From IMG/VR virus record IMGVR_UViG_3300020045_003191, positions 1 through 41,325 of that record: a stretch of DNA of 41,325 nt; one strand, given 5' to 3'. Both the position numbers and the translations under genes were made by a program. The notes beneath the pieces were generated by a model, which was not told the DNA's origin, searched no databases, and was given only the letters and a program-made list of their open reading frames with translations. Source of the DNA: a virus. Taxonomy: Duplodnaviria; Caudoviricetes. Positions 213 to 41,325 of the stretch are shown piece after piece (position 1 is the stretch's first letter; every line of letters begins with the position of its first letter).

Positions 213-238
213 CCCGCCCTCCTGTTGACGAGGGCGGG
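213..238. terminator. GC-rich hairpin between convergent units
   Basis: CCCGCCCTC-ctgttgac-GAGGGCGGG, 9-bp perfect stem just after the stop at 211. Confidence 0.6.
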
Positions 239-334
239 CTAACGGCTTGCGTTAGTTGCGGGAAACGGCGGGACGAGAAAAAGCCGTCAGTTTTGCCGAA
301 GCCCGTTTACCGTCAACTGCACGCTTTGTTGGGC
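237..334 (-). repeat. attC: attC site (98 bp)
   Basis: Minus strand GCCCAAC-AAAGC-GTGCAGTT-GAC...GC-AACTAAC-GCAAGCC-GTTAGCC gives R''/L''/L'/R' boxes with extrahelical bases. Confidence 0.88.
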
Positions 335-448
335 GGCTTCACAGATTGCAATGATACGATTGCATTCTTCAAACACTGTCTGTTTGTCACCTACGTTTGC
401 AAGCAACTTTATTGCAGATGCCCGCATAATTATTTCATCAATATCCAT
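287..448 (-). CDS. Cassette gene, 53-aa hypothetical protein (MDIDEIIMR...)
   Basis: ATG at 448 after AAGGAG; stop lies in the attC loop. Confidence 0.7.
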   Translation of the reverse strand: MDIDEIIMRASAIKLLANVGDKQTVFEECNRIIAICEAAQQSVQLTVNGLRQN

Positions 449-477
449 TTTGCTCCTTATGCCGTTGAGCGAGAGCC

Positions 478-602
478 GCCCAACGGATTGCGTTAGGCGC
501 GTGTGCGCCCGCAGAACGAACATATACGAGAACCATTGCCAAGCGTGATAGTGTAGTCTTTCGAGTGTGCCTTGCACACGTCGCCTGCACGCATTGTTAG
601 GT
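478..602 (-). repeat. attC: attC site (125 bp)
   Basis: Minus strand ACCTAAC-AATGC-GTGCAGGC-GAC-GTGTGC...GCACAC-GC-GCCTAAC-GCAATCC-GTTGGGC. Confidence 0.88.
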
Positions 603-738
603 GCGACCTGACCCACGCATAAAACGCTCGGATGTTTCCAGCTACTAAAGTTTTATGTATATCTGGTGTGTCATTCGACCACTTTAGTTTACGGATATAT
701 TCCTCTATCAATTCAAGATTTTCGTCAACTTGTGTCAT
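493..738 (-). CDS. Cassette gene, 81-aa hypothetical protein with C-terminal CxxH...CxxC
   Basis: ATG at 738 after GGAGG; C-terminal ~35 aa encoded by the attC; stop is the TAA of the L' box. Confidence 0.7.
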   Translation of the reverse strand: MTQVDENLELIEEYIRKLKWSNDTPDIHKTLVAGNIRAFYAWVRSHLTMRAGDVCKAHSKDYTITLGNGSRICSFCGRTRA

Positions 739-751
739 TGTGCCTCCTAGC

Positions 752-880
752 ATCTAACGGCTGGCGTTACCCGCAAGTGGGCGGAACGCTGATAACCTGG
801 TTTGACGGGGCCAATTCCCCGGTGGGTAAAATTTCCGAAGCGGGAGAATCCCCACTTGTCGGGTGGACGCGATGTTCGGC
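752..880 (-). repeat. attC: attC site (129 bp)
   Basis: Minus strand GCCGAAC-ATCGC-GTCCACCC-GAC-AAGTGGG...CCCACTT-GC-GGGTAAC-GCCAGCC-GTTAGAT. Confidence 0.88.
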
Positions 881-1072
881 GGCTTCAAGCATGGCAATTT
901 CTTTTTTACTGTTAAGACACTTGCGATGCAAGAATATTTGGTATGGCTTGTCGTAAGTCTCTGCCATACCGTAAAGCCTGATTACGTTCTCGCCTTCAAT
1001 TCGCCTGCCGCACTCTTCGCAATATCGGACGCGGCGAGATTTTTTTATTATCCGAACTGATAATGTTGGCAT
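767..1072 (-). CDS. First cassette gene, 101-aa zinc-finger-like protein (CEEC...HRKC)
   Basis: ATG after AAGGAGAG; CxxC/HxxC motif; stop in the L' box of the attC. Confidence 0.75.
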   Translation of the reverse strand: MPTLSVRIIKKSRRVRYCEECGRRIEGENVIRLYGMAETYDKPYQIFLHRKCLNSKKEIAMLEAAEHRVHPTSGDSPASEILPTGELAPSNQVISVPPTCG

Positions 1073-1095
1073 AGTCTCTCCTTTGCGGACGTGCC

Positions 1096-1128
1096 GCCGA
1101 ACTATGATTTATACATTAGACTTATACA
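1096..1128 (-). other. attI: attI-like recombination site
   Basis: Minus strand TGTATAA-gtctaa-TGTATAAA-TCATA-G^TTCGGC; lone R core with no hairpin partner, TAAA-N5-GTT geometry as in class 1 attI1, short direct repeats. Confidence 0.65.
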
Positions 1129-1156
1129 ATTATAATCAATTACTATCAGATGTCAA
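1129..1156 (-). promoter_or_regulatory. Sigma70-type promoter facing the cassette array (Pc equivalent)
   Basis: TTGACA (1156-1151), 16 nt, TATAAT (1134-1129). Confidence 0.8.
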
Positions 1157-1442
1157 GTACTAATTTATTGTACCCGGCATCAATACACTGCTGACGCGTG
1201 ACGCCGCGCCGCTTCGCTTTTTCCTCTTGTGCTGGCGACCACGAGACCGTATAAGACCGCTTGCGCCATTCTTCTGACACACGCTTGCGTCGTAGCCATA
1301 AATGGACGCTTCCGTCAATGTTTATGGTGTACTCCCACTTCCGCCCGCAAGCGCGGCACGGGATGGAGCGCGCGCCAGTAGATATGATCTCGGCTCCGCA
1401 CCCGACGCCTTTTGGGTCACGGCATATCGTTTTTGTTTTCAT
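1146..1442 (-). CDS. 98-aa zinc-ribbon plus ribbon-helix-helix-like putative regulator
   Basis: C...C/CRAC motif, then SYTVSWSPAQEEKAKRRGVTRQQCI; ATG overlaps the upstream stop. Confidence 0.5.
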   Translation of the reverse strand: MKTKTICRDPKGVGCGAEIISTGARSIPCRACGRKWEYTINIDGSVHLWLRRKRVSEEWRKRSYTVSWSPAQEEKAKRRGVTRQQCIDAGYNKLVLDI

Positions 1443-1834
1443 TCGCACTCGCTTTCGCCGCCGATAGCCTGCCCGCATATAAACCTTGCACCATCCCCCG
1501 GCGGTGTGATCTGGACAAAGCCATTCTCGACTACGCCGTAAATCATAACTGTGTCACCGGGACAGACATATCCGACGCGGTTGTCGCCAATTTCAGGCGC
1601 GGATCTGATGTGCCAACAGGCAGAACCGATCTCGCCAATTACCACCATTTCGCGGGGGTATGGGTCGGAGGTCGGTTTTACCGTTTGCGATTGAATTTGA
1701 GGCTGAATTTTGGCAGATTCAACGGTTTTTTCAGCGGTTGGCAAAGCCTGAATGGCGGCATTAGACACGCCGCAAGCGATTTGCGCCAGTACTAATATTG
1801 TCAACGTAATGAGTATGATTGTAAACTTATTCAT
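1439..1834 (-). CDS. Secreted/lipoprotein with SH3b-like domain
   Basis: Signal peptide with IAC-G lipobox, P/T-rich linker, WHIRSAP...VGYVCPGDTVMI...NGFVQI. Confidence 0.65.
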   Translation of the reverse strand: MNKFTIILITLTILVLAQIACGVSNAAIQALPTAEKTVESAKIQPQIQSQTVKPTSDPYPREMVVIGEIGSACWHIRSAPEIGDNRVGYVCPGDTVMIYGVVENGFVQITPPGDGARFICGQAIGGESECE

Positions 1835-2043
1835 TTCGTCTCACTCTCTGCCAACGCTTGCGCGGCGTTGGCTGTGTCTATAAGCCTGACAACGTTCCCC
1901 GTCTGTGACCTTATCGCTTTAGCGTTGGCAATCCCAAACCAGACACGCCCGGTCTTTTTATCATTGCAAATAATGAGTTGACCGTTCATTGCCAACGCTT
2001 GCAGTCCTGTCCAACTGACTGCCAACGCTTGTTCCCTTGTCAT
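1831..2043 (-). CDS. Hypothetical protein (MTREQALAVS...)
   Basis: ATG at 2043 after GGGAGAA; stop overlaps the next start. Confidence 0.5.
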   Translation of the reverse strand: MTREQALAVSWTGLQALAMNGQLIICNDKKTGRVWFGIANAKAIRSQTGNVVRLIDTANAAQALAESETK

Positions 2044-2345
2044 TTCTCCCTGCCAACGCTTCGCTTCCGTTGGCTGTAGCGTTGGCAATGTCGAAGAGGG
2101 GCTTAAGTTCGCTGTACTGTTGCTTCCGCTGTCCTTCGCTTTTTGCACCGACATACCAGACCGCCTTTCGTTCCTTGTTTCTCTCTCGCCAACTAATGCC
2201 GCGCAACATACCGTACTTGTTTCTTCGTGGCTCTAAGCGTGTTGGCTGTTCAAATATAGCGTTGGCTGTGTCTATTATCTCTATGTCGTTACTGAGTGCC
2301 AACGCTTGCGGTATCTCTGCCAACGCTTGCGCGGCGTTGGCTGTG
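1845..2345. repeat. Cluster of GCCAACGC motifs in both orientations, bounded by a 32-bp direct repeat
   Basis: TGCCAACGCTT at 1849, 1990, 2020, 2051, 2297, 2318; GCGTTGGC at 1865, 1922, 2079, 2259, 2334; 1845-1876 identical to 2314-2345. Confidence 0.9.
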
Positions 2346-2410
2346 CCACTTTCCGCCGCCGCCGCCTCCCGTACCAGCGGAGGCAGAGCGGCTAGGAAGG
2401 GTGGTTTACG
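1961..2410 (-). CDS. Basic hypothetical ORF, probably a -1 frameshift extension of the upstream membrane protein
   Basis: Frame open 2410-1961 with no upstream ATG/RBS; overlaps the end of 2392-3141 in the -1 frame. Confidence 0.45.
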   Translation of the reverse strand, partial: RKPPFLAALPPLVREAAAAESGTANAAQALAEIPQALALSNDIEIIDTANAIFEQPTRLEPRRNKYGMLRGISWRERNKERKAVWYVGAKSEGQRKQQYSELKPLFDIANATANGSEALAGRNDKGTSVGSQLDRTASVGNERSTHYLQ

Positions 2411-3141
2411 TCACGATCTGCGAGCTTCGCCTGTTCGGTATCTTGCGGAAATGCGCCAGCGGGTCGGGCTGTAAACTGTTGCGGCGGTTGACGCTTTTGT
2501 ACACGCTCTGTTGGCTTTGCCTGCTTATCGCCTCTCAAAATGCGGATGATATTTTCGACTTCATCAACACCATATTTGCTTTCAAGCGAACTGATAACAG
2601 ACAACAAATCGTTCCCGCTTTCCAGTAATTGCGTGGCTACCTGTGCGTTCAACTCTTGGTCAAGCATTTTTGACATTGCCTGTTTCTTATGGCGACGACG
2701 CGCTACGTCTGGGTCATTGTAAAAATAAAGCATCCCAACGACGGTATGTAAACCCGTCAGAATAACAACCGACCCCAAGAGGAAGTCAGCCCACGTTCCT
2801 TGAAAACCAAGAAAATCAGCCACACCTAAAAAGATAGACGTGGCGAAGGCGATACCCGCCATAACAAGAGATACCTTGCGCCAATTCTCTGTAGTGGAAT
2901 TGTACTGCCATGCAATCTCCCAAATCAGGAACGGGATAGCACACGCCGCCGACGCCGACAAAGCCTTCCACCATGAAAGGGTGAGACCATAAACCACATC
3001 GAAGGCGCGCACGTCTGCAATGATAACCATTAGATTCGCAAACACCGCCATGATAAGCGGGGCATTACTTACAACGTTTCGTTCAAACCACCCTTCCTCA
3101 TTCTGCGACTGCAATAAATCACTTACTTTTTTTTGTGTCAT
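2392..3141 (-). CDS. Four-transmembrane membrane protein with cytoplasmic helical tail
   Basis: Four hydrophobic segments; ATG at 3141 after GAGG. Confidence 0.7.
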   Translation of the reverse strand: MTQKKVSDLLQSQNEEGWFERNVVSNAPLIMAVFANLMVIIADVRAFDVVYGLTLSWWKALSASAACAIPFLIWEIAWQYNSTTENWRKVSLVMAGIAFATSIFLGVADFLGFQGTWADFLLGSVVILTGLHTVVGMLYFYNDPDVARRRHKKQAMSKMLDQELNAQVATQLLESGNDLLSVISSLESKYGVDEVENIIRILRGDKQAKPTERVQKRQPPQQFTARPAGAFPQDTEQAKLADRDVNHPS

Positions 3142-3146
3142 TTTAT

Positions 3147-3365
3147 TTACCTCTTCCTTTTCGGGATTGGAATTTCCCAATATTTATACATCGCTCTTCC
3201 GTACTTGTGTGGGTCGTAAGGCAACCATACACCATCGCGCTTTCGATAAAACATATCTGCGTTCTCGATCTTTACTATTGTTACCCAAAGAAACAATACA
3301 GCACCAACAACAACACCAACCAAAAAGAAAACAATGTAAATCACTTCAGCCCCCAGTTCTCGCAA
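3147..3365 (-). CDS. Small single-pass membrane protein
   Basis: Hydrophobic stretch VIYIVFFLVGVVVGAVLFLWV; packed in operon. Confidence 0.5.
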   Translation of the reverse strand: MRELGAEVIYIVFFLVGVVVGAVLFLWVTIVKIENADMFYRKRDGVWLPYDPHKYGRAMYKYWEIPIPKRKR

Positions 3366-3565
3366 ATGTTATTCCAGCGTTCGCTCATAGTAACTCCTCT
3401 TTCGTATGTGTCAACCGCACTATTCAACGGGGCGGGGGCGTCTACGATCTGCCAAAGGTTGTAACCGATATGCAGTATCGAACGTATAACATTGCCCGGC
3501 GCGCTTGCGCCGTCTGTCCGCTTTGCGGCTTCGTAGTAGTTGCGGGCGTGGAATGGGTCGCTCAT
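3341..3565 (-). CDS. Hypothetical protein
   Basis: ATG start, operon packing. Confidence 0.4.
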   Translation of the reverse strand: MSDPFHARNYYEAAKRTDGASAPGNVIRSILHIGYNLWQIVDAPAPLNSAVDTYERGVTMSERWNNICENWGLK

Positions 3566-3648
3566 GTTATCCTGTCAAAACGTACAGGGCGTAACCGACC
3601 ATTATACAAAAAAGAACTATTCCAAAACAATTCAAAAAGTCTTTCATG

Positions 3649-3939
3649 TTATGCCTCTTGCTTTCCGTGTATCCTGTTATGCTCTTCACGCGTAACGGGT
3701 TGCAGGTCTGATAACCGCTCCCGTCCCGTGATAAACCACTTACCAATCACAGGGACAAAATGATACCATTGCGGCTTGCCTATCCGTGCGTAGGTCAAGT
3801 GATGAATGTCGACTCTGCCAGTTACGCCGTGTTGTTTCTTGACCTTCAAGCGCAGGCGATACCAATAGGGCGAGCGCATATAGATGCGATCTTTCCAGAA
3901 CTTGTAAAGCCGGGGCGGGAGGTAGAGATAGTCAGTCAA
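3649..3939 (-). CDS. Small HNH endonuclease-like protein
   Basis: YMRSPYW...DIHHLTY...ERLSDLQPVTREEHNRIH. Confidence 0.7.
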   Translation of the reverse strand: MTDYLYLPPRLYKFWKDRIYMRSPYWYRLRLKVKKQHGVTGRVDIHHLTYARIGKPQWYHFVPVIGKWFITGRERLSDLQPVTREEHNRIHGKQEA

Positions 3940-4238
3940 TTTATGCGCCTCTCATTGATTACGTCCGCCATTTCTTCCGGCGTCTCAATGACATAAAAAT
4001 CAATCCCGCCCGCTTTACACTCTGCCTGCAACGTCAATTCATCTGATGTTAATTTCCTGTCAGACGGACGTTGACTCGGATTCTTGACCTCAACAAAAAA
4101 CATGGGAAAATCCTTGACTAAAATATCCGCGCCGTCGCCCTCTCGCAATAGAATGTATCCAATACCCGCACGTGATAACACTGCTGTGATTAGCGGCTCA
4201 TTCATGTCCCTGTGTCCTACTGCAAAACGACTTGGCAT
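3936..4238 (-). CDS. VRR-NUC / PD-(D/E)XK nuclease (resolvase-like)
   Basis: RDxNE...GADILV...FVEVKNP...KLTSDE pattern. Confidence 0.75.
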   Translation of the reverse strand: MPSRFAVGHRDMNEPLITAVLSRAGIGYILLREGDGADILVKDFPMFFVEVKNPSQRPSDRKLTSDELTLQAECKAGGIDFYVIETPEEMADVINERRIN

Positions 4239-4263
4239 TGTTTCATCCTGTCCGGGCGGTATG

Positions 4264-4569
4264 TCATGGCTTGCGCTCCAGTAACTTTGCGTATGCCTTG
4301 AGTTTCGCCGTAAACTCAAAAAACTTTTGGGCATCATCTCCACTCACCCAAATATTCGCAATTCCATTGTTTACAGCGTTCACAATAAATTGACCGTCCG
4401 CTTCAATCGCCTGCAGGCGGGCGAGGTTTCTTTTTAGGGTGACTATATCTATAATACGATTCTTCCCAAAGTCAAATAATTCCTCCCATGAGGATTCGTT
4501 TTTTGGAAAATCATCCTCTACTTCGGTTCCTGCTACAAGGTCATCTATATATTTATAAAATGCGCTCAT
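4264..4569 (-). CDS. Hypothetical protein
   Basis: ATG overlapping the upstream stop. Confidence 0.55.
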   Translation of the reverse strand: MSAFYKYIDDLVAGTEVEDDFPKNESSWEELFDFGKNRIIDIVTLKRNLARLQAIEADGQFIVNAVNNGIANIWVSGDDAQKFFEFTAKLKAYAKLLERKP

Positions 4570-4763
4570 CCTTGCCTCATTACCATCTGATTGACCTGCT
4601 CATTCGTGAGCAGGTTCATATCCACGTACCGCGGGCGGGGCTTCGTGTCCCGCCATAACTGGATAAAGCCTAACAGCCAGAACGCGATCATCAATGCGGC
4701 GAAGGGGGAGGGAGGGGTCATGTTATAACATCCTATATCTGTACTGCCTACCAACCCGCTCAC
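4566..4763 (-). CDS. Small membrane protein (start may be the internal MTPP)
   Basis: FAALMIAFWLLGFI hydrophobic helix. Confidence 0.45.
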   Translation of the reverse strand: MSGLVGSTDIGCYNMTPPSPFAALMIAFWLLGFIQLWRDTKPRPRYVDMNLLTNEQVNQMVMRQG

Positions 4764-4956
4764 GCTTCGCCTTGCCTTGTTTGACTAATTCATCCAGCCA
4801 AATTTTTACAGTAGAGCGACCTACACGCCCCGCCCAATAATCGTACAAATCGAACGTTGGATAGGGCGTCATCTTTTCCTGCTCTGTTTTCCATTTGTTA
4901 TATGCTTCGTCTAAAGTCATGGTATAAGATATACCATTAACTGTACTGCCCGTCAA
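4723..4956 (-). CDS. Small winged-helix DNA-binding protein
   Basis: GRSTVKIWLDELVKQGKAKRERVGRQYRY wHTH pattern. Confidence 0.6.
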   Translation of the reverse strand: MTGSTVNGISYTMTLDEAYNKWKTEQEKMTPYPTFDLYDYWAGRVGRSTVKIWLDELVKQGKAKRERVGRQYRYRML

Positions 4957-5162
4957 GGTCTGTAATTTACCAATAACACCCTCTGCCCGTCCACAACGTC
5001 ACTTGTGATAAAACCCTTATCCTTCAACCGTCGCAATATCGCCTCGACGTTGTAGCCGAGTTTTCTTTCGATAGCCATGCGTCCGGGGTTGTTTTTGTAC
5101 CTGTCCTGGAATTGACAGATATATTCCAGTACTTCACGCTCACGCGGTTTGAGGGGAATCAC
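4953..5162 (-). CDS. LexA-N-terminal-like winged-helix protein
   Basis: LKPREREVLEYICQF...P...IERKLG...LRRLKDKGFI. Confidence 0.65.
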   Translation of the reverse strand: MIPLKPREREVLEYICQFQDRYKNNPGRMAIERKLGYNVEAILRRLKDKGFITSDVVDGQRVLLVNYRP

Positions 5163-5313
5163 CCCACCTCTTCCCCGCCGTGCGCGGGTTCGCTGTCTGC
5201 TATCAGTTTCAGGCACACCGGACAGGTGACGGCTTCCTTCACGTTGGTGATACTCATCCAGTCCAGTGCGCCGCACATGACGGTAATCTCTCTCATGCTG
5301 TTGGTGTAGTGGG

Positions 5314-5865
5314 TCATTTCATTGCCTCTATAACGGATTTCAACGCCGCTCTCATTCTGTTTGTCAATCTGTTTTGATATTCGTATTCATCCGATAACAT
5401 AGACTCGGCTTGTCTACTGATACGGTCACAGTCATGTAAGAAAAAATCAACATCCAATTCCTGCCCGCTGTCTGCAAATTTCAACACGCCAGCGATGGAT
5501 GGGTTCCAGCCTTTCGATATGCAGTTGTCAAAATAGGCGTTTACTTTTTCCTGTTCAACTTGCAATTCCTTGACGCGCCGATTCCATTGCATCTTGGTAA
5601 ATCCATAATCAAGCAAGGTAACACGCGTGTTACCTTGCCCCCCGTGCTGGATTTCAGGCAGTATCAATTCTGTTGTCTTGCGCCGCGCCAGCAGGTATAT
5701 GCGAGTTGCAATAACCATAGTCTCATAATCATGTTGTTCTTTTGCGTAGGCTATTGCGGCGGCTGATATTGCTTCGACTGCCTGAGTCTCTTGTGGCGTG
5801 CCTGCGTTCGTCAGTTTGTTTTCGATGTAGCTGATGGGTAGGATGTTGGATTGTGTCATCTCCAT
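5314..5865 (-). CDS. Hypothetical protein
   Basis: 183-aa ORF in the operon. Confidence 0.6.
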   Translation of the reverse strand: MEMTQSNILPISYIENKLTNAGTPQETQAVEAISAAAIAYAKEQHDYETMVIATRIYLLARRKTTELILPEIQHGGQGNTRVTLLDYGFTKMQWNRRVKELQVEQEKVNAYFDNCISKGWNPSIAGVLKFADSGQELDVDFFLHDCDRISRQAESMLSDEYEYQNRLTNRMRAALKSVIEAMK

Positions 5866-6086
5866 GCCGCCAATTCTGCCTCACGGCTGTATTCTGCCAG
5901 TACGATCTCCGCTATTTCATCGTCGCTGTATTCTGTGTTCGGACTGGCTCTGTAGTAATCATCATGCTTGCCAAAGTATGATGTGATGTAGAACGGACGG
6001 TTATCGGGATAGTCACGACAAAGTTCGTATGTTATTTTTCGCCAACCATAACGGCGGGCTAGTGTTTCAATCTTGAATTTGGTCAT
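5856..6086 (-). CDS. Hypothetical protein
   Basis: ATG ORF overlapping the next start. Confidence 0.5.
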   Translation of the reverse strand: MTKFKIETLARRYGWRKITYELCRDYPDNRPFYITSYFGKHDDYYRASPNTEYSDDEIAEIVLAEYSREAELAAWR

Positions 6087-6139
6087 GGGTTATATCCATT
6101 CTGTCGGGTCTGTTGGTTCCGGCTCTGGCAGTGGGTGGG

Positions 6140-6667
6140 TCATTTTATCCTCAGTTCGGGTGCGATAAAAGGAACGCCTATAAGATTGAAAACATCCTGT
6201 TCTTCGGGCGTTTCAACAACATGATTGTTGCTCCAAATTGCGCCGCCTTCAACACGGTAATTAGACGGCATCAAGCCTCCATATTTGCGCGACGTAACAA
6301 GTCTATGACTGAAATCAGCAGAGCCAGTCCGTATCATAAACTGTATACCCCATTGTGCGGGAGGTGTGATGATAAACAAATCAAGAGTCAATCCTTCCTC
6401 AAGTTCAATCTGCTTATATTTATGCCCGCCCTTGACTGGCTTCCCATACTTAGACCAATCCACCGAATCAAGCATGTGATTTTCGCTTATCGTTCCAAAC
6501 ATGTCTGTCTCGAATTTAGGAATGGCTACAAGTTCAATATCTCCCACCTCCGGTTTTAGCCTTCTTAAACTTCCTGCTATTTCAATTCTTTGACAAAAAG
6601 GCGCAAGCCTTTCAATAACGCTCTTGGCAATATTCCACGCTTCTGCGTGATAGAGTTTGCGTTTCAT
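6140..6667 (-). CDS. Minimal family X DNA polymerase / nucleotidyltransferase (palm plus C-terminal domain)
   Basis: AGSLRR...GDIELV, third acidic residue in LDLF, RTGSADF, EEQDVFNLIGVPFIAPELR. Confidence 0.85.
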   Translation of the reverse strand: MKRKLYHAEAWNIAKSVIERLAPFCQRIEIAGSLRRLKPEVGDIELVAIPKFETDMFGTISENHMLDSVDWSKYGKPVKGGHKYKQIELEEGLTLDLFIITPPAQWGIQFMIRTGSADFSHRLVTSRKYGGLMPSNYRVEGGAIWSNNHVVETPEEQDVFNLIGVPFIAPELRIK

Positions 6668-7389
6668 CCCGCCCCCTTCGCTTGCAGGGCGACTTTGGCG
6701 GCTTGATAAACCCAGAGGGGTATATCAGTATCACCCGCTGTTTGTCTGCCCGCTATAGTTTTTGTAAACTTTTCCATCGCGGCGACCCGCTGTTTGAGTC
6801 TGATAATCGCATCTGGTATCGCGGTAGTGTCTGTCCCGCTCACATCCATTCCCAACGCATTCACACAGGCAAGGAATACAGAACCATCGCGGGCAAGCAT
6901 AATCTTGTCATGTTCGCCATCGCCCATTATCAAACCATCATAAAATCTCAGGTTCGATTGTGCCGCGTCCCGCTCCGCCTCCAGTGCGGTGATGCGCTGT
7001 TGCAAAGAAATAATTTCCCTCTCAAGTTTTTCTTCGCGTTCCATATTCCCGTATAAATTTTTACCTAATATGCCCATCTCATTTCGCAGGGCGGCTTCAA
7101 TATCCTCACGCGTCCGCCAATAGTAGTCATGCGCCTCCGCCTGTGATGTATCACATCGAAACGCAACGTCCGCACGCGCTAGTAATTTTTCAAGCGCGGT
7201 GACGCGGTGTTGCAGGGTGTCGTAATACTCCTCTCGTATCACCACCACACCCTCCTCACCATACAATTCTTCGCCGTCCAGTAATTTAGCGATGGATGAT
7301 ATTTGTCCAGCTCGCAGGGCGTCAATCTGTTCCTGATAACCTTGCTTCAATGCCTGTACTGTCTCATCTTGCCACGGTTGACCTTTCAT
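6664..7389 (-). CDS. Coiled-coil hypothetical protein with repeated LQxRxTALE motif
   Basis: LQHRVTALE, LQQRITALE, LKQRVAAME. Confidence 0.6.
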   Translation of the reverse strand: MKGQPWQDETVQALKQGYQEQIDALRAGQISSIAKLLDGEELYGEEGVVVIREEYYDTLQHRVTALEKLLARADVAFRCDTSQAEAHDYYWRTREDIEAALRNEMGILGKNLYGNMEREEKLEREIISLQQRITALEAERDAAQSNLRFYDGLIMGDGEHDKIMLARDGSVFLACVNALGMDVSGTDTTAIPDAIIRLKQRVAAMEKFTKTIAGRQTAGDTDIPLWVYQAAKVALQAKGAG

Positions 7390-8338: not shown

Positions 8339-8340
8339 GA

Positions 8341-9646: not shown

Positions 9647-9698
9647 TCATCCTTTCGTGTCAAGTACCAATATTGCGCCCGTCCAGGGGCGGCGGGGG

Positions 9699-10010: not shown

Positions 10011-10067
10011 CTTTCCACGCCTCCGCCTCTGTCTGCGAAGCGGCGCGTGCGTTTCGGTCTGTTGTTG

Positions 10068-30272: not shown

Positions 30273-30284
30273 AAAAGCGGAGAG

Positions 30285-32865: not shown

Positions 32866-32866
32866 C

Positions 32867-34894
32867 ATGATACTTCATCCATATTCCATTGAAGATCGTT
32901 ATGGTACGGTCACGGTAATAGGTAGCACCGATTCGACGCTAAATTGGGAGTCAACTGATTACAATGCCAAGTTTCCACGCGCCGCCGCAAATCTGCAAAT
33001 GGAAACCAACGCGTCGTATATCAAGCGTGCCGGGGCTGTTCCTGTCTATTCAGGCAAGGATTACAAACCGCATACGATGGTACTGGAAATTATTTGTAAA
33101 CACGATACACAAACGCTATTCAGCACCCTTAACCAGCTATTCGACACAAAGGACGAAACGCCGCGCCAGTTAATTTGCATTGACGTTGAAAACAGCGACA
33201 AGCAGTATTATATTTATGTCACCCCCACGAAGGTTTTAGGCGGGCATGATGGGACAATGGTCACGGTCACACTGGCAATAGATGACCCTGTATGGCAGAG
33301 TGTTTCCTATAACTCGCAGACGTTCGGGATTGCTACTGCTACCGATTCCACAAGCGTGACAGTAAACGGGAATGATGAAAGCTATCCTATATTTGAAGTG
33401 ACACCCACTTCCCAAACGTCAACCGATTACCGCTATTCAGTTTACTTGCAGGTACTTCCCACTTCTACCGACCCGTGGAATAACCGCCGTATCAACATCA
33501 CGGGCGATACGTCAACCACATGGGATACCGCCGCGCTTGTTACGGCTGTAAAGATGCAAGCGGACATGGATGATTTTGCCGTGTTGCAGGATGGGGTTTT
33601 TGTTGACTTTTGGCTATCAGGCGCAAACACAACTGATACAAAGGTTAACGTGGTTGCAGACATGCCGCCCGTTTATAACATGACGTTGGGTACTGCTTTG
33701 GCGTCTACCGATACCATCACGACCGTATCCTTGACGGTGAATAACGCCAACAAAAAAGCAATCAAGCAGTTGCCTAACGAGGGCAGAATTATCATTGACA
33801 CATCTTTGGGCAGTACGGACTCAGAGGAGTTTGTTTACACGGCTAAAACGGTTACGACCACAGAGCTATCTTTTACCATAAACTCGCGCGCTGTACGCGG
33901 GACAGTTGCCCTTAATCATTCAGTTGGTCACAACGTCCGATTCCTCCCTTATGACTTTACGCTTGTATACGGTAAAGCCTCCGCAACCGCGCCCGAAATA
34001 GATGATACTTATAAACCGATTTCATCCCTTGCGGATAATAACTCGACCTTTACCTATACACAATTTTATAACGTAGCCGCCACGCGTGCGGGTATATGGA
34101 AGCCCGAAGTCACGCGCGTATCAAATCCGCAATTGACAAACTCAGGCTATTACACATCCACAAACGACGCGGGAGACACAGACCCCGCCTCCGCGATGGG
34201 CGTGCGTGCGGAGAGCTACGAATCAAACGGCGTTTGGAATGCAGACACAATTACCATACTTTGGAAAAACTATTTCCCTGAAATTGTATCCAGTGTTTCG
34301 GCGTCTGGTTATCAAATCCAAACGGTAGCAGGCAGACCGTCCTTTAAGTTGCAGTCAAGCCCAGATGACCAGACATGGGCGACGCTCGCCACAGTAGCCG
34401 CGCAATCAGCAACGGATTATTCGACCTGGACGGCGTGGACTATTTCATCCTCTGATTTGACCATCCCCACGGGCACAACTTATTTACGCTTTATACAGAA
34501 CGGGTCAATCACAGGCTCTACCGATAATTACGCCCGCGTAAGTGTTGAAGCGGTGACGGTTGCAATTACCAATAATCCCCATGTAATGATACGTGCGGAG
34601 GCGGCAAACGTACAGGCGAATTTTAAGATTGTCAATTCCACAACGGGCGATTATTTTATAATCAATTTTCCAATGGCAACCAGTGAGACACTTTATATTG
34701 ACACAAATCCAGACTTTCCAACCGTGACCTATAAGGGCAAAGTGGTTAATGGGTGTATAAAATTATCCACTGTTCGTTCCAAGTGGCTGGTACTTAGACC
34801 GGGTACAAATACAATAGGATTTGAAACCCAGAAAAGCGATGTAGACCCAATGAATATCGTTATAAAGTTTAAAGACAGGGCGAACTTTTTCTAA
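32867..34894 (+). CDS. Distal tail/baseplate protein with inserted domains
   Basis: Follows TMP; DPVW, VNGNDESYP, WLVLRPGTNTI Dit-like motifs. Confidence 0.7.
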   Translation: MILHPYSIEDRYGTVTVIGSTDSTLNWESTDYNAKFPRAAANLQMETNASYIKRAGAVPVYSGKDYKPHTMVLEIICKHDTQTLFSTLNQLFDTKDETPRQLICIDVENSDKQYYIYVTPTKVLGGHDGTMVTVTLAIDDPVWQSVSYNSQTFGIATATDSTSVTVNGNDESYPIFEVTPTSQTSTDYRYSVYLQVLPTSTDPWNNRRINITGDTSTTWDTAALVTAVKMQADMDDFAVLQDGVFVDFWLSGANTTDTKVNVVADMPPVYNMTLGTALASTDTITTVSLTVNNANKKAIKQLPNEGRIIIDTSLGSTDSEEFVYTAKTVTTTELSFTINSRAVRGTVALNHSVGHNVRFLPYDFTLVYGKASATAPEIDDTYKPISSLADNNSTFTYTQFYNVAATRAGIWKPEVTRVSNPQLTNSGYYTSTNDAGDTDPASAMGVRAESYESNGVWNADTITILWKNYFPEIVSSVSASGYQIQTVAGRPSFKLQSSPDDQTWATLATVAAQSATDYSTWTAWTISSSDLTIPTGTTYLRFIQNGSITGSTDNYARVSVEAVTVAITNNPHVMIRAEAANVQANFKIVNSTTGDYFIINFPMATSETLYIDTNPDFPTVTYKGKVVNGCIKLSTVRSKWLVLRPGTNTIGFETQKSDVDPMNIVIKFKDRANFF

Positions 34895-35952
34895 TGTGGC
34901 TCTCCACCTCCTCATTCCCGAAGGATCGGGTGCGCGTTTTTGATAGAAGCGGTATCCCTATCGCAGAGTTTAACGCGGCTGTTGAACGCTCATGGGTATT
35001 GAACGACGAAGGGCGGGCGCAATTTACCTACCCGTCACGCAAAACGCAGATCGTTAATCCGAAGGTACTAAACTTTGGGAACTGGCTATTGATTGAAAAC
35101 AACCTGTTACCTGATTGGGTGGGAGTGATTGACACGCCGCAGGAATGGGATACCCGCTCTGTTACCGTATCAGCCTATTCACCGGAACACGTTTTCAGTT
35201 TTCGGCGCGGTCCCGTGGAAGAGACCATAAAAGGTTCTGCGGGTTCGATATTTGGCAAGCTGATAAATAAAGTCAATCAGGCAGAGGCGACCATTTTGCA
35301 GGTTGGGTCATTGTGGACGGGCGGCGAACAGCGCGAAGAGACTCTTAACCCCATCCTGCTTAGTGAGAGTTTGCGGAGAATACGGGAACGAAGTCTGGAA
35401 GAATACGAGTTTATCCCGCAGATTGACAAAAACGAACGCTTGCGGGTGATTGGTAATTGGTCGCAAAAAATAGGACGTGATACATCCATACTGTTACATG
35501 AAGGCAAGGGCGGCGGGAATGTCGAGGCGGTGGGGCGTATCATGGTTGTAGACGGCACGATTGTAAATGACCTGCTGGGGTATGGCGAAGGCGAAACGTG
35601 GAAGTCGAAGCCGATGTTTACCGCCAAAGATAAACAGAGTATCGGCAAATACGGGCTTAGGCAGGGGTCGGAGGAGTTTGAGAATTCGACTCAAGCCTCT
35701 ATACAAAGTAATACCATAAAAAAGTTGCAGGAATATGAAAACATCCCCAACACATTCAGGCTAAACGCTTTGAATTTGGGTGCTACGTGGAAGTATATTC
35801 GCATGGGTAATACCTTGACGCTACGCTTTCAAAACATCGGCTTTGGTAATACGGGTATCGGATATGAGACGGTAGTTAGAATCGTTGGCATGGTGTATGA
35901 GCCGAACAGTAAAAACAAAGTAGAGTTGACAGTATCAGAGGTGACAGTATGA
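34894..35952 (+). CDS. Minor tail / baseplate hub protein
   Basis: Position; SIGKYGLR, IRMGNTL..RIVG motifs. Confidence 0.65.
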   Translation: MWLSTSSFPKDRVRVFDRSGIPIAEFNAAVERSWVLNDEGRAQFTYPSRKTQIVNPKVLNFGNWLLIENNLLPDWVGVIDTPQEWDTRSVTVSAYSPEHVFSFRRGPVEETIKGSAGSIFGKLINKVNQAEATILQVGSLWTGGEQREETLNPILLSESLRRIRERSLEEYEFIPQIDKNERLRVIGNWSQKIGRDTSILLHEGKGGGNVEAVGRIMVVDGTIVNDLLGYGEGETWKSKPMFTAKDKQSIGKYGLRQGSEEFENSTQASIQSNTIKKLQEYENIPNTFRLNALNLGATWKYIRMGNTLTLRFQNIGFGNTGIGYETVVRIVGMVYEPNSKNKVELTVSEVTV

Positions 35953-37079
35953 GCAGTTTTGTAAGGCAACCATTAGAGCAAAAATTAAATAGACAGAATA
36001 TGATTTCCCGTATCAAGCGGCTGGAATCCAAGACGGGCGCGCGCGCGAGTGCGAGCGTGAACGACTTGGGCGAGATAGCGGACAAGATCAGCGCGGCTAA
36101 ATTCTACGCGGTGGATGTGGATAAGAACGTAGTCCGAATGATTATGTCGGGTGAATCTCTTATAGGCTTGATTGGCGTTGATGCTCATTTGGCGGGTATG
36201 GCGGATGATGGGACGGTTCAATTTTATGTAGACGCCGCGACGGGAAAAATATATTGGGGAAGCGGTGCGGGTGTGTTGGATTCAGATGGTATGTCTATAA
36301 ATATAGATAATTATGATGACACTACAAATCCAAACGCAATACGATTTTTATCGAGTGGGACAGAAGCGTCAAGAATAGTAGCATGGCAAAACACCGGGAC
36401 GCTTAATAATTATGCCGCTACAACCGTTAATCATATAACTGGTCTGTCGAGTAACTATCGTATAGATGTGTACGGCTCAAGTACAGATGGTGCGGCAATT
36501 AACATGAATGCTCAGGGAGTATATCAACATCTCTTGAAGATCGACGCCTCCCTGGCTGGTATAAAAATATCAAGAATTACTCTCAACGGAGGTCCCATTG
36601 CAAAAATTGGCGGCATTATATTCGACCACTACGCCAACGTCGGGAACGTTGGGACGGGTGAGGATGATTTATATTCTGACACTCTAGACGCTGATACCTT
36701 TGTGGCGGACGGTGACAAGGTAACCGCCTCCTACATGGTCACGATGGTAGCGCACGCAACAGCCACGCGTCGAATTAGGATATACTTGGGCGGTACATCC
36801 ATATATGACACAGCCGCTATCACCATTGCGGGCGGGCTTGGGTATTGTGGTATTAATGTCGAGATGATTCGGGAAAGTTCTACAGTCGTTCGATGTTCGG
36901 TCACAGCGAGCGGATATAGAATGTCCGCAACTGTACCCGCGCTTTATACAAGAGTTACGGGTTTGACGCTGACTAACACAAACATACTAAAGATTACAGG
37001 CGAGGCGGCAGGGGTGGGCGCGGCAACAGATGACCTTATCGCACGCACTGGAACGGTGTACTGGTATCCGGCGGCATGA
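35949..37079 (+). CDS. Tail fibre / receptor-binding protein
   Basis: N-terminal coil RIKRLES, then Gly/Thr-rich beta body; last tail gene. Confidence 0.6.
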   Translation: MSSFVRQPLEQKLNRQNMISRIKRLESKTGARASASVNDLGEIADKISAAKFYAVDVDKNVVRMIMSGESLIGLIGVDAHLAGMADDGTVQFYVDAATGKIYWGSGAGVLDSDGMSINIDNYDDTTNPNAIRFLSSGTEASRIVAWQNTGTLNNYAATTVNHITGLSSNYRIDVYGSSTDGAAINMNAQGVYQHLLKIDASLAGIKISRITLNGGPIAKIGGIIFDHYANVGNVGTGEDDLYSDTLDADTFVADGDKVTASYMVTMVAHATATRRIRIYLGGTSIYDTAAITIAGGLGYCGINVEMIRESSTVVRCSVTASGYRMSATVPALYTRVTGLTLTNTNILKITGEAAGVGAATDDLIARTGTVYWYPAA

Positions 37080-37089
37080 TAGGAGTGGT

Positions 37090-38112
37090 ATGAACTTCAC
37101 AGACGGAAACGTAATCGGCGCGGATGTATCTCTGTATCAGGATGATAACGGGACACTCCAACGCATAGACTTTACCAAGATGGTTGGACAGGGTGCGTCC
37201 TTCGTCATTGTGCGCGCCGGGCAGAACGCTTGGGTTGACCCTGACTTTGCCTACAATTGGGCGAACGCAAAAGCGGCGGGATTACCGCGCGGTTCGTATT
37301 GGTTTTATGACTCACGCTATCCCCCGCTCGCACAGGCGGAGCTATTTGCGGGACTGTTCGCAACCGATAAGCCTGAATTGGAATTGTGGCTTGACTTGGA
37401 AGAGGCATACGGCGGGAGTTATGCGGGGTGGAAGAACTGGAAAATATTCTTGACCCGATTGCATGAGTTATTGCCATCCGTAAAGATTGGAATTTATACC
37501 GGGTACTATTACTTTACTGGCAAGATACCCGCGTCAGAGTATCCATTCTTTTCTGCATTTGGTTTATGGATCGCCTGGTACACGTCAAATCCCGCTAATG
37601 TGTCAATCCCGGTCCCGTGGACAAACTGCCTGTATTGGCAATGGGGTACGCCCTCTTGGGGCTTGGCTTGGGGGTGCGAGAGTATTGAAATTGATATGAA
37701 TAAATTCAACGGCACCGCGGCGGAGTTTTCCGCACGTTACGGAATCGGAGGAGGTACAGACCCCATGCCCACAGACAAATATTATCTCGTTACGGTTGAC
37801 GCCCTGAATGTACGGGACGCCTTGACTGGTGGCAATCCGATATTCACAATACAACTCAATGACGTTGTACACTCCGTTGAAAATGGCACGGATGGAAACA
37901 TCGTCCGCCACAAGATAGATAAGTTGTATAAAGCTGGCGTATTGACACCCTTCGACGTCACATCCCCAACGGGTCAATATTGGGCGGCTGAAAAGAACAC
38001 GTCAACCGGTAATGTGTTTATGGTGGAAACGAGCGACCCGAATCCGCCGCAAAAGGTATTGACACACACAATCAAAGTATTCGATGACGGGAGCATTGTT
38101 ATAGATGGCTAG
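37090..38112 (+). CDS. Endolysin, GH25 muramidase with SH3-like C-terminal region
   Basis: GADVSLYQ, WLDLEE, IYT, LWIAWY, WQW, IDMN; LNVR SH3b motif; AGGAG RBS. Confidence 0.92.
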   Translation: MNFTDGNVIGADVSLYQDDNGTLQRIDFTKMVGQGASFVIVRAGQNAWVDPDFAYNWANAKAAGLPRGSYWFYDSRYPPLAQAELFAGLFATDKPELELWLDLEEAYGGSYAGWKNWKIFLTRLHELLPSVKIGIYTGYYYFTGKIPASEYPFFSAFGLWIAWYTSNPANVSIPVPWTNCLYWQWGTPSWGLAWGCESIEIDMNKFNGTAAEFSARYGIGGGTDPMPTDKYYLVTVDALNVRDALTGGNPIFTIQLNDVVHSVENGTDGNIVRHKIDKLYKAGVLTPFDVTSPTGQYWAAEKNTSTGNVFMVETSDPNPPQKVLTHTIKVFDDGSIVIDG

Positions 38113-38824
38113 TCTACTGCGTACAGTAAAAGTGTTCAACGATGGGAGTATTGAGGTAGAAGCGGCGCAAGTACCTCCCCCCTCTTACCGCGTCCGCAAG
38201 TGGGGCGATCCCATCATGGCGAAGGAATATAACTGCGACGTGAACGTGATAAAAACAACGAACTTTCAGCGCGTCTGTATGTATGTCCCTCTCACGAGTA
38301 CATGGTCGGTTGTGGAAAATCATGTTGTACTGGGGCGCGCTGAGATGAATGCGCTGATAAACATACAAACAAAGTGGGGGAAACACACCTCTGACACGTT
38401 CGATCAAATGATGAATTGGCTGGTGTTCGATGGTGAGGCGACCCGTCCATATTGGGGCGGCAAATGGAAAACGGCTACGCTGTTCAAAACGGGTACGATG
38501 TTATGGGGCGGGCAATTGGTACAAATCGGCGAGCGTAAAACATTCCTGACGGCTACGCCGGGGAATACCAAAAAGAGACAGATTGAGATGGGCAAGGTTG
38601 TCACGTTTACAAAGGCGGATTTAGCGAAGCTGATAGCCGGGACCATCACCCCGCAATCACATCCCCACCTGATACCGCAATGTAGTGCGGCGGGTGGTAA
38701 CAACGTATTCAATCCAACGCCGCGCGGCAATACAATGTTCTCGCCTATCTGGGGCGGTGAGTGGGCAAAGGTGAATATGGCAAGGGATTGGTATATCCCG
38801 CTGGAATGTCTGGAGCCTGCATAA
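38105..38824 (+). CDS. Lysis-module accessory protein sharing a terminal peptide with the endolysin
   Basis: N-terminal TVKVFNDGSIEV matches endolysin C-terminal TIKVFDDGSIVI. Confidence 0.65.
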   Translation: MASLLRTVKVFNDGSIEVEAAQVPPPSYRVRKWGDPIMAKEYNCDVNVIKTTNFQRVCMYVPLTSTWSVVENHVVLGRAEMNALINIQTKWGKHTSDTFDQMMNWLVFDGEATRPYWGGKWKTATLFKTGTMLWGGQLVQIGERKTFLTATPGNTKKRQIEMGKVVTFTKADLAKLIAGTITPQSHPHLIPQCSAAGGNNVFNPTPRGNTMFSPIWGGEWAKVNMARDWYIPLECLEPA

Positions 38825-38831
38825 TATAAAA

Positions 38832-38861
38832 CTCCCACTGTCCATTTTGCAACAGCGGGAG
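38832..38861. terminator. Hairpin between the late operon and the convergent cassette array
   Basis: AAAA-CTCCCACTGT...ACAGCGGGAG; the U-tract reads on the minus strand. Confidence 0.55.
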
Positions 38862-38903
38862 GAGACGGCGTTACCTAATCCGTATACCGTTTATTATTTG
38901 CCG

Positions 38904-39032
38904 GGCTAACGGCTGGCGTTAGTGGCAGTGGGGCGGGCTGGGAAAATGCCAGAGAGCCGCACCAACTACCAGACGCGAACCAACTAAATCAGCGGGGAGA
39001 ATCCCCACTGTCCACTGCACGCGGTGTTAGCC
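38904..39032 (-). repeat. attC: attC site (129 bp)
   Basis: Minus strand GGCTAAC-ACCGC-GTGCAGTG-GAC-AGTGGGG...CCCCACT-GC-CACTAAC-GCCAGCC-GTTAGCC. Confidence 0.88.
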
Positions 39033-39291
39033 CGCGTTTTCGTTCGGCAATCTTTTTCAGCAATTCACCAGCAATCAATTCATCATCATTTCCAAATAGA
39101 TTGTCTGGCGCGGTCTTGATAAGTGCAATCGCCTGAATTGCTTTTGTTTCTGCGGCTTCTAAAACTTGCTTGCGCCGTTCTGGATTTTGGAAAAACTCCA
39201 CTGCTGACGCAATGCCGCCGCCTGATGGTATTGCTTCACGAGCGATAAATTGAGTAATCAATTTTGTGACATTTGTTCCGTATTTGCTCAT
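38989..39291 (-). CDS. Cassette gene, 100-aa hypothetical protein (MSKYGTN...)
   Basis: AAGGAGAG RBS; stop inside the attC. Confidence 0.75.
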   Translation of the reverse strand: MSKYGTNVTKLITQFIAREAIPSGGGIASAVEFFQNPERRKQVLEAAETKAIQAIALIKTAPDNLFGNDDELIAGELLKKIAERKRGLTPRAVDSGDSPR

Positions 39292-39314
39292 GGCTCTCCT
39301 TTTGCAAAGAAGCG

Positions 39315-39425
39315 GGCTAACGGTTTGCGTTACCCGCAAGGGCGAGAACGCAAGACCATGAATTTATTAGAATGGAATATCGTTTTCAGACTCGTTGCCC
39401 TTGTCGGGTGCACGCTTTGTTAGGC
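39315..39425 (-). repeat. attC: attC site (111 bp)
   Basis: Minus strand GCCTAAC-AAAGC-GTGCACCC-GAC-AAGGGC...GCCCTT-GC-GGGTAAC-GCAAACC-GTTAGCC. Confidence 0.88.
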
Positions 39426-39615
39426 GGTGTACTATTGACCAAAACCACGACATGACATCTGAATAAACCTGATAGGCTTTCACCTTACGGTATGACCAAC
39501 ACCTATCATATAAGAGATACCCATATTCGCAACAGTTGACGGCAACGGCTTGCTGACCTACGCCAATATCAACATATTCAAACGGATGTAAATCACAAAA
39601 CGGACATTTTTCCAT
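39367..39615 (-). CDS. Cassette gene, 82-aa Cys-rich protein (MEKCPFC...DIPF)
   Basis: GAAAGG RBS; stop in the attC loop; also in frame with the upstream cassette gene. Confidence 0.65.
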   Translation of the reverse strand: MEKCPFCDLHPFEYVDIGVGQQAVAVNCCEYGYLLYDRCWSYRKVKAYQVYSDVMSWFWSIVHRLTKRAPDKGNESENDIPF

Positions 39616-40050
39616 GATGAACCTTTCACGCGGCGAAGCCGCCCAACGGTTTGCGTTACCCGCGTGGGGCACGCGAACCTGTCCAATTATTGCCCAGCCT
39701 GCCCCACGTCGGGTGCACGCTGTGTTAGACCCCGTAAGAGCCTCACGATAAAGAGACCTTACTTCATCTTCCGAAGCGACAATATCTGTGGATGGATACA
39801 ATCCATTGTTTGAGCTTTCCCATCCAGTACCTTCGAGGTTTTCATAATCAATGTGTTCCAATCGCGCCATGAGCGAACCATCACAATCTTTGTCGTAGCC
39901 AGTTATGCGGAATGCAAGCAAAACGATTGTTCCAACTGGCTCAGGCTCAATGGGATCGCGGCGAATAGTTGAAAAATTATCTGGAAAGCCTGGCATTGAT
40001 TCCATTCTGAAATTTTCTTCTTCGGCTGTTATTTCTCTGACTGTTCTCAT
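39367..40050 (-). CDS. Cassette gene (MRTVREIT...) reading through its attC into the next cassette gene; 227-aa fusion
   Basis: AAGGAG RBS before 40050; no in-frame stop across attC 39641-39730. Confidence 0.65.
   Translation of the reverse strand: MRTVREITAEEENFRMESMPGFPDNFSTIRRDPIEPEPVGTIVLLAFRITGYDKDCDGSLMARLEHIDYENLEGTGWESSNNGLYPSTDIVASEDEVRSLYREALTGSNTACTRRGAGWAIIGQVRVPHAGNANRWAASPRERFIMEKCPFCDLHPFEYVDIGVGQQAVAVNCCEYGYLLYDRCWSYRKVKAYQVYSDVMSWFWSIVHRLTKRAPDKGNESENDIPF
39641..39730 (-). repeat. attC: attC site (90 bp)
   Basis: Minus strand GTCTAAC-ACAGC-GTGCACCC-GAC-GTGGGGC...GCCCCAC-GC-GGGTAAC-GCAAACC-GTTGGGC. Confidence 0.88.
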
Positions 40051-40069
40051 AAGGCTCCTTTGCTTAGGG

Positions 40070-40203
40070 GTCTAACGGCCAAGCGTTACCGGATTGTGGC
40101 TGCGGATGTAGTATCCGCCCCTTTGACGGTGACGCCATCGGCTGACATATTAGCCGGTGAAACGGGACCGCCCGCCACAATTCCGGTGGACGCAATGTTG
40201 GCT
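40070..40203 (-). repeat. attC: attC site (134 bp)
   Basis: Minus strand AGCCAAC-ATTGC-GTCCACCG-GA-ATTGTGGC...GCCACAAT-CCGGTAAC-GCTTGGCC-GTTAGAC. Confidence 0.85.
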
Positions 40204-40475
40204 TGCGCTTCTGCGGGCGTGATGTGATGCTGACGATAATAAGCGTGCCATTCGCGGGAGGGCCAGAAATATCCGCCGTCGTAAATGTAAATTGGATTGG
40301 CGGGGTTGAACGGATAGGCGCTGTAAGTTGCACGGTCTGGATACCCTGGGGCCGAAACGCCACAACGCTGAAATCCGCCGATGTATTTATTATCCAGGCC
40401 GCACAACGAAATCCAAACTTCGGATTTTTCGTAATCGTCTGGCGAGGTGCATTTCTTTGCGGGGAAGTGTTCCAT
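40086..40475 (-). CDS. Cassette gene, 129-aa hypothetical protein (MEHFPAKK...)
   Basis: GGAG RBS; stop is the TAA in the L' box. Confidence 0.7.
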   Translation of the reverse strand: MEHFPAKKCTSPDDYEKSEVWISLCGLDNKYIGGFQRCGVSAPGYPDRATYSAYPFNPANPIYIYDGGYFWPSREWHAYYRQHHITPAEAQANIASTGIVAGGPVSPANMSADGVTVKGADTTSAATIR

Positions 40476-41325
40476 ATTTCTCCAATAGCAAGCCAACGGA
40501 TTGCGTTACCGGCGAAAAGCCGAGAACCAACCAAGCAAACGGGATAAGATATTTCGAGCGGACAAAGCCGCTTTGACGGCTGCTGGCTTTTCGTCCGGTG
40601 GACGCGGTGTTAGGTGGCGTGCAGAACGGCCCGCACTCAACCCCGCGTAATTTCTGAGAGAGTTCTTTGCCGAGGAAGTTTAGCCCTGGCAGTTCATCGA
40701 GGAAATATTTCCGGCAGATGTGATAATTCAACTCTCTTTCTATCGTGGCGATTTTCCAAAAGTTCTCTGGAAAATATGTAAAAACTTTTAGCCAGTAAGC
40801 AATTGATTTAGATTTCACGCACCCTAAACAATTGTTATTTGGAAAGCCAAGATAATAAAGTTCTGGCAATCGAATACCAGCAGATTCGAGAATGGTTAGA
40901 CAATCGCGCTTTGTTATGCCAAGTTCGATGAGCGGCCAAAGTAAATACAAATCTGGATTGTCTCTTTCAAAATCTTTTGCCCGGCGAGTTTCCCCGGCAT
41001 GATAACCAAAGACATGGTAATCAGATGGCTCTTGCCAGAGTTCACGCACGCGCCGCTTTAGTTCATGCGTGCATGGTGCAAAACCCTTACCGACAATAAA
41101 TCTCTTTTTCCTGAAAACATCATAAATATCTTTGTACTCGCTGGAATAGAGTTGCAGAATTGGTACGTTTGTCCATTCTGATATTTGATTTTGAAAGCGG
41201 AGATTATCGGGCGATTCGGTTGAAAGAGTGCTGGCACAATTAACCGCTATCACGTTTTGATAATTCGCGGCGGCATATTTCAAGGCGATCGCTGACGCAG
41301 CGCCATTTGAAAACCAAACCACCAC
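40390..41325 (-). CDS. PAPS-reductase-family (PP-loop) protein, 5'-truncated cassette gene reading through its attC
   Basis: VVWFSNGAASA PP-loop, APCTHELK, GFPNNNCLGCVK, VECGPFC. Confidence 0.8.
   Translation of the reverse strand: MVVWFSNGAASAIALKYAAANYQNVIAVNCASTLSTESPDNLRFQNQISEWTNVPILQLYSSEYKDIYDVFRKKRFIVGKGFAPCTHELKRRVRELWQEPSDYHVFGYHAGETRRAKDFERDNPDLYLLWPLIELGITKRDCLTILESAGIRLPELYYLGFPNNNCLGCVKSKSIAYWLKVFTYFPENFWKIATIERELNYHICRKYFLDELPGLNFLGKELSQKLRGVECGPFCTPPNTASTGRKASSRQSGFVRSKYLIPFAWLVLGFSPVTQSVGLLLEKYGTLPRKEMHLARRLRKIRSLDFVVRPG
40491..40615 (-). repeat. attC: attC site (125 bp)
   Basis: Minus strand ACCTAAC-ACCGC-GTCCACCG-GAC-GAAAAGCC...GGCTTTTC-GC-CGGTAAC-GCAATCC-GTTGGCT. Confidence 0.88.

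Follow-up and report, generated by a model that had tools for sequence, protein, structure and literature searches.

The tailed phage genome analyzed here, the 41,325-nucleotide IMG/VR virus record IMGVR_UViG_3300020045_003191 (Duplodnaviria; Caudoviricetes), which in its entirety we call the window, carries integron-type gene cassettes, an attI-like site and a promoter-like sequence, and no recombinase gene was found in the record; the phage probably relies on an integron integrase (IntI) provided in trans by its host. According to this model, the host enzyme would insert, excise, and reorder the phage cassettes. Excision would proceed by attC x attC recombination, the two cores of a cassette would pair fully in the circle, and the circle would enter at the G|TT of the attI-like site or of another attC; a cassette newly entered at the attI-like site would be expressed first from the promoter. 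The record is linear, 99% complete, and represents a near-complete tailed phage. Phage clusters of attC sites lacking integrases (CALINs) are already in print; what is added here is an integrase-free phage platform and a phage-type cassette pool. The cassettes, each with its open reading frame (ORF), and the sites associated with them are as follows.

243..483, minus strand: cassette A3, 241 bp; ORF 448-287 (53 aa), stop within the attC; attC 237-334
484..757, minus strand: cassette A2, 274 bp; ORF 738-493 (81 aa), stop in the attC L' box; attC 478-602
758..1101, minus strand: cassette A1, 344 bp; ORF 1072-767 (101 aa), stop in the attC L' box; attC 752-880
1093..1117, minus strand: attI-like entry site, GTATAAATCATA followed by GTT, without the attC hairpin motif and resembling host entry sites
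1129..1156, minus strand: promoter-like TTGACA-16-TATAAT aimed into the left array, a 12/12 match to the sigma-70 consensus
38910..39320, minus strand: cassette B4, 411 bp; ORF 39291-38989 (100 aa), stop within the attC; attC 38904-39032
39321..39646, minus strand: cassette B3, 326 bp; ORF 39615-39367 (82 aa), phrog_24508; attC 39315-39425
39647..40075, minus strand: cassette B2, 429 bp; ORF from 40050, in frame through the whole attC (39641-39730) into the B3 ORF
40076..40496, minus strand: cassette B1, 421 bp; ORF 40475-40086 (129 aa), stop in the attC L' box; attC 40070-40203
40497..41325, minus strand: cassette B0, truncated at the record end; gene similar to phosphoadenosine phosphosulfate (PAPS) reductases, reading through the attC (40491-40615)

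All eight attC sites are on the minus strand; the left end of the window holds three and the right end five, the eighth (R'' at 40609, R' at 40497) closing the cassette that the record end cuts off. Each has an R'' (AAC) and an R' (GTT) core enclosing inverted L'' and L' boxes in a hairpin (8 motif pairs), and predicted folds of the circular forms contain an unpaired central spacer and extrahelical bases on the bottom strand. A structural detector recovered 7 of the 8 sites and none in 20 mononucleotide shuffles of the window. The sites resemble canonical attC as described in the excerpted text of Bouvier et al. 2009 (PMC2727003) in their R''-L'' and L'-R' boxes, unpaired central spacer, extrahelical bases, and variable terminal structure; unlike the sites described there, they also encode the C-terminus of the cassette protein.

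An earlier note on this DNA had proposed that the GTT core opening each cassette is complementary to the AAC core opening the attC of the same cassette. All seven pairs it listed lie on the minus strand where it had placed them, matching at 10/10 (1102/874), 8/9 (758/596), 11/11 (484/328), 10/10 (39321/39026), 8/9 (39647/39419), and 10/10 (40497/40197), while 40076/39724 matches at 10/10 rather than the 9/9 it had counted. With the invariant GTT excluded, 45 of 49 positions agree with the cassette's own core; the permutation mean is 28.0 and only 2 of 5040 permutations reach 45, so shuffled pairings do not match equally well. The additional claim that a core fits its own attC better than the neighboring one is borne out overall, the following R' in the linear array agreeing at 24/49 positions versus 45/49, with a weak exception at R'' 39026, which matches the neighboring core at 38910 at 6/7 positions and its own at 7/7. 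The same rule extends beyond the window: 115 internal cassettes of viral loci (9 duplicate loci and all loci <1500 bases set aside) gave 623 matches, whereas 5000 shuffles averaged 395 and never exceeded 439. When circularized in silico, as the earlier note had suggested, all seven cassettes fold more stably than the linear attC; this stability stems from the same core complementarity and is not independent evidence.

These are integron-type cassettes, in agreement with the earlier note. Its further view, that they are mobile cassettes inserted as circles, holds in part: the complementarity is compatible with insertion as circles but does not demonstrate present mobility. Self-pairing of 9-11 nt at the cores is reported for most cassettes (Bouvier et al. 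2009, from the same excerpt). Complementarity of the start core is therefore textbook, expected of any integron array and not new; the notable part is that the arrays are housed in a phage without a recombinase, and not the core signature that the earlier note stressed.

Position 1102 is the entry point of the left array, as had been proposed: its core fits R'' at 874, it lacks an attC motif, and it is the top match in the window to host entry sites. Scored with a matrix of 11 host entry sites, it ranks first among the 1464 GTT sites of the window (12.2 bits; next, 7.4), and a matrix of the 2 intI-adjacent host sites again places it first of 1464 (10.2; next, 6.4). The host entry sites beside a divergent intI in loci L145 and L214 read much like the window site. 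Crossover is expected between G 1102 and T 1101. Twenty-six bases upstream of the core lies the promoter-like sequence, the sole 12/12 match on the minus strand in positions 1-1500; judging from this consensus, it may function as a promoter resembling the integron cassette promoter (Pc). Compared with a complete integron, the window has a putative attI at the head of the array, by likeness to host sites, and a putative Pc, by consensus; no intI was found beside the array (no PF00589 match, in a linear record of 99% completeness). It equally corresponds to a phage CALIN, with at least two attC sites, no intI nearby, and a location within a phage genome. Of the 32 viral entry candidates that were not classed as attC ends, 9 score at least 8 bits (background, 0.14%); the 32 include several overlooked attC ends and two candidates whose spacer is shorter by one base.

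The attC type is widespread. A 19-base half-site pattern was found in at least 139 viral loci and at least 180 genome loci, and among the 80 genome loci listed most belong to Anaerolineales or to other members of the Chloroflexota; arrays of 10-20 sites occur in some. Because this attC type is common in these genomes, the phage host is likely a member of the Anaerolineales, an assignment made from this distribution and not directly. The window shares with the sedentary chromosomal integrons and the CALINs of Anaerolineales the attC box motifs, a near-identical attI core region, and the own-core rule. It differs in that intI and array diverge in the host loci L145 and L214, whereas the window has neither intI nor the upstream repeats of host attI. 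For 8 of the 11 host entry sites no intI was found nearby, and hence attI-headed, intI-free arrays also occur on host chromosomes. Five Anaerolineales chromosomal arrays (L159, L180, L188, L197, and L205) have a well-kept attI-like head with upstream repeats and no adjacent intI.

The window record contains no match to tyrosine recombinases (PF00589, 0/1) or to resolvase-type serine recombinases (PF00239, 0/1). In related viral records, PF00589 was found in 3 of 14 and was lacking from the circular G007, G008, G018 (100%), G002, and G041, in which the arrays are internal. One of the arrays of G018 separates the portal from the head genes. In G004, whose terminase (56%) and capsid (40%) are shared with the window, a first array sits after SSB, with a RusA-like gene on its other side, and a second converges on the holin; a further locus, L072, contains homologs of window genes with its array at another position.

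Alternatively, the platform could be real and draw its IntI from a related phage, either co-infecting or resident, or its integrase could be encoded where the genome was not sequenced. Searches for IntI in the records of 50 of the 80 long viral loci gave 6 above the cut-off, one of them with an internal stop; two of the IntI-bearing records are circular and complete. The phage enzymes keep the IntI-specific insertion in alignment with host IntI. For the unsequenced part, the linear state of the record speaks in favor and its 99% completeness against. As for a phage enzyme, 3 of the 4 scored entry sites of intI-bearing phages differ from the host-like site of the window (L316, L317, and L320 score poorly on the host matrix, at -11 to -16 bits; L318 scores 7.1), and attI is described as recognized only by its cognate integrase (PMC2095811, excerpted text). 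Because the window site is host-like and attI is described as specific in this way, host IntI seems the likelier recombinase, and we regard service by a phage-borne or missing integrase as unlikely. In the six phage IntI loci the GTT core lies 0-13 bases past the intI stop. These genes (L315-L320, from G006, G013, G030, G037, G046, and G010) run in the same direction as the cassettes, in contrast to host intI in L145 and L214, which is divergent. Between the entry core and the first gene, L316 (2488-2570) and L319 (after intI) share a short unit with strong pairing and no apparent gene.

The cassettes themselves are of a phage type. Their median length is 416 bp in viral loci (n=73) versus 789 bp in hosts (n=89, ~13 genomes), and no match at E 1e-5 was found between the proteins of the 73 viral and the 89 host cassettes. 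When only cassettes with a single forward ORF spanning 60% or more were counted, the ORF extended into the attC or beyond it in 45 of 63 viral cassettes and 1 of 67 host ones, the host ORFs stopping at or before R'' in 66 of 67. Restricting the count to bodies of at least 500 bp gave 11/17 viral versus 0/62 host; this subset matters because the choice of ORF in short cassettes is uncertain. In the window, ORFs enter the attC in 8/8 cassettes: three stop at the TAA of the L' box, three within the loop, and two span the whole site. Four pairs of viral cassettes are 83-93% identical in protein, and in the two pairs checked the neighbors differ. Of the recurrence in other contexts that the earlier note had proposed to look for, only related cassettes were found, in different neighborhoods in other phages. 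The cassette pool likely circulates among phages, since its cargo consists of phage-type accessory genes and not of host-array genes.

Few of the cargo proteins could be assigned. The cassette ORFs compared with Pfam gave no family, B0 alone received a name from PHROGs, which also placed B3, and the right array has no match in GenBank phages. The B0 gene lacks ~20 N-terminal residues, as judged from alignment with homologs, and matches phrog_424 (E 1.6e-35); the same cargo (40390-41325, minus strand) also matches the phosphorothioation protein SspD in PADLOC (E 2.2e-8), which hints at a possible role in DNA modification. The in-frame reading of B2 and B3 (39367-40050, minus strand) could yield a 227-aa fusion that depends on cassette order.

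It is conceivable that the window is a prophage, integrated by attI x attC recombination into a host chromosomal array, with the flanking cassettes belonging to the host. On either side of the phage body there are indeed cassettes, all oriented alike; the body is bounded by an attC core (38910) and the attI-like site (1102), no phage integrase was found, and a Cro/C1-type helix-turn-helix gene is present (Pfam). Beyond the left array, however, lies a phage late-module gene and not a host gene; the cassettes have phage traits, being short, read into the attC, and in the case of B2 homologous to phage genes; and circular records hold such arrays internally. Host chromosomal DNA beyond the flanking cassettes is absent at the left, and the right flank ends inside a cassette. 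Given the left flank and the phage-type cassettes, this arrangement was largely rejected, and we consider it highly improbable.

Equally, the arrays could be a frozen relic, a host array segment or cassettes that entered once, by a recombination accident or attG-type secondary insertion, and have been immobile since. The lack of an integrase in the record and of observed circles fits such a history, and illegitimate or homologous recombination has been proposed for phage CALINs (PMC9892861, in the text available as excerpt); IntI also inserts cassettes at GWT sites (10.1101/2022.09.11.507474, likewise excerpted), and read-through of attC could reflect domestication. All eight attC, on the other hand, keep their box motifs, with cores nearly unmutated (45/49), the entry site matches host attI beyond GWT, and 0 of 73 viral cassette proteins match any host one, which together make a relic very unlikely.

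Several observations weigh against reliance on host IntI. An intact intI adjoins only 2 of the 11 host entry sites in the matrix, and some 13 genomes supplied the 89 cassettes of the host comparison. In a search that started from the motif, a matching attC followed only 5 of the 18 viral matches, another was truncated, and the remaining 12 resembled chance hits; none of the 18 was recognized as an empty attI site. No exact copy of any window cassette was found elsewhere. The record is linear and truncated within genes at both ends, so an integrase could lie in the missing part, and the 6 of 50 related viral records with their own IntI mean that a co-infecting phage could supply the enzyme. Finally, no recombination, circle, or expression was observed. 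The read evidence consists of contigs of three runs from one study, the best run holding 0.12 of the words; these include short stretches nearly identical to the phage body and to B4, along with many attC-like fragments foreign to the phage, but no cassette circle and none of the circle junctions that the earlier note had proposed to look for.

The manner in which cassette ORFs end bears on where the cassettes come from. In class 1 arrays, genes downstream can be expressed more strongly when translation proceeds up to and through attC (PMC11511950, excerpted text), and such a gain is a possible reason for ORFs running into attC here. Homologs of B2 (55-61%) in three viral contigs have a normal stop, and no attC was found there. 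Close homologs of the PAPS-reductase-like protein share the R''-encoded residues and then carry differing tails, and distant ones end just past the last cysteine; in the viral-contig search no relatives of this protein were confirmed. We tentatively suggest that ordinary phage genes may become cassettes when an attC replaces the stop codon at their 3' end, to be shuffled by host integrase at a copy of host attI, although this origin is the less probable part of our interpretation.

The remainder of the window and its ends comprise the following features.

2..211, plus strand: 3' part (69 aa) of a phage late-module gene of ~173 aa, converging on the left array
213..238, no strand assigned: G+C-rich hairpin directly past the exit core of the left array
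1103..38909, no strand assigned: tailed phage body with replication, RecT, SSB, methylase, terminase, portal, capsid, tail, and endolysin genes (PHROGs, Pfam)
37030-38112: endolysin, part of the phage body
38105-38824: ORF after the endolysin, part of the phage body
38832..38861, no strand assigned: hairpin between the end of the late operon and the exit core of the right array (38910)

The two ends of the record resemble each other. Homologs of the left-end ORF have 173-195 aa; its family profile matches the protein after the endolysin in phage G004 (E 5.6e-8), and the neighbors in L346 are tail- and holin-like. Given this profile match, both ends (1-243 and 38105-38910) show the end of a late operon, followed by a hairpin and an exit core beginning GTTAGCCCG. 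The left hairpin, which a terminator scan did not list, may act as a terminator. We slightly favor the explanation that the assembly ran from one allele of a single variable locus, via the shared body, into another allele. That the genome has two arrays, with ~0.5 kb missing, is a serious but less probable alternative; two arrays per phage do occur, in G004 and G018. A small chance is left for some other arrangement. There is no terminal repeat or clean circular join: the ends share no 12-mers, and no frame continues across the join. The contigs of the three runs contained no joining of the two ends and no allele switch. Protein P0001 has no similarity to 38105-38824, and no relatives of it were confirmed in viral contigs; the same holds for relatives of 2392-3180.

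Within the body, the portal protein (18787-20961, plus strand) is fused to a 2'-5' RNA ligase-like (2H phosphoesterase) domain, a large tail-region protein (30784-32865, plus strand) has a Hint domain near its C-terminus, and a small protein (6140-6667, minus strand) has a DNA polymerase beta thumb domain. At 1836-2350, an imperfect palindrome built on GCCAACGC and GCGTTGGC is repeated, several copies lying inside coding sequence and two 32-nt copies being identical.

Among known systems, the closest are the phage CALINs of Qi, Rajabal, Ghaly, Tetu, and Gillings 2023 (PMC9892861), who, in the excerpted text, report 17 CALINs, 3 integrons, and 1 In0 in 10,705 phage genomes and show that 5 of 6 tested phage attC recombine with attI1. 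These CALINs are likewise attC clusters without intI, with one-gene cassettes in the same direction and DNA methylase cargo, and one, in a Shewanella prophage, has its own attI. As far as the excerpt extends, none of the 21 phages is given a Chloroflexota host, unlike the likely host here, and for the CALINs of virulent phages no attI or promoter is reported and accidental capture is proposed. The window differs from them in its host-type attI-like site and consensus promoter, phage-type pool, ORFs running into attC, and many related contigs. It also resembles attG insertion and single attC sites lacking integrases (SALINs; Loot et al., 10.1101/2022.09.11.507474) in having cassettes away from intI; attG, by the excerpted account, needs only GWT and short motifs, whereas at 1102 the likeness to host attI extends over ~15 bases and the site comes with a promoter-like sequence of its own. 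A literature search made largely outside the subscription journals turned up no paper on integrons of Chloroflexota phages or on the use of a host IntI by phages.

Integrons are viewed as bacterial devices and have recently been regarded as reservoirs of anti-phage genes. If a docking site and a promoter are maintained by phages that borrow the host integrase, integron machinery would serve the phage side too, and methylase-type and PAPS-reductase-like cargo could counter host restriction. The placement of the stop codon, inside attC in phages versus before it in hosts, together with the cassette-free phage homologs, bears on the origin of cassettes; if phage genes are indeed made into cassettes, gene pairs with and without attC, such as those of B2 and the PAPS-reductase-like protein, would make the creation of a cassette directly testable.

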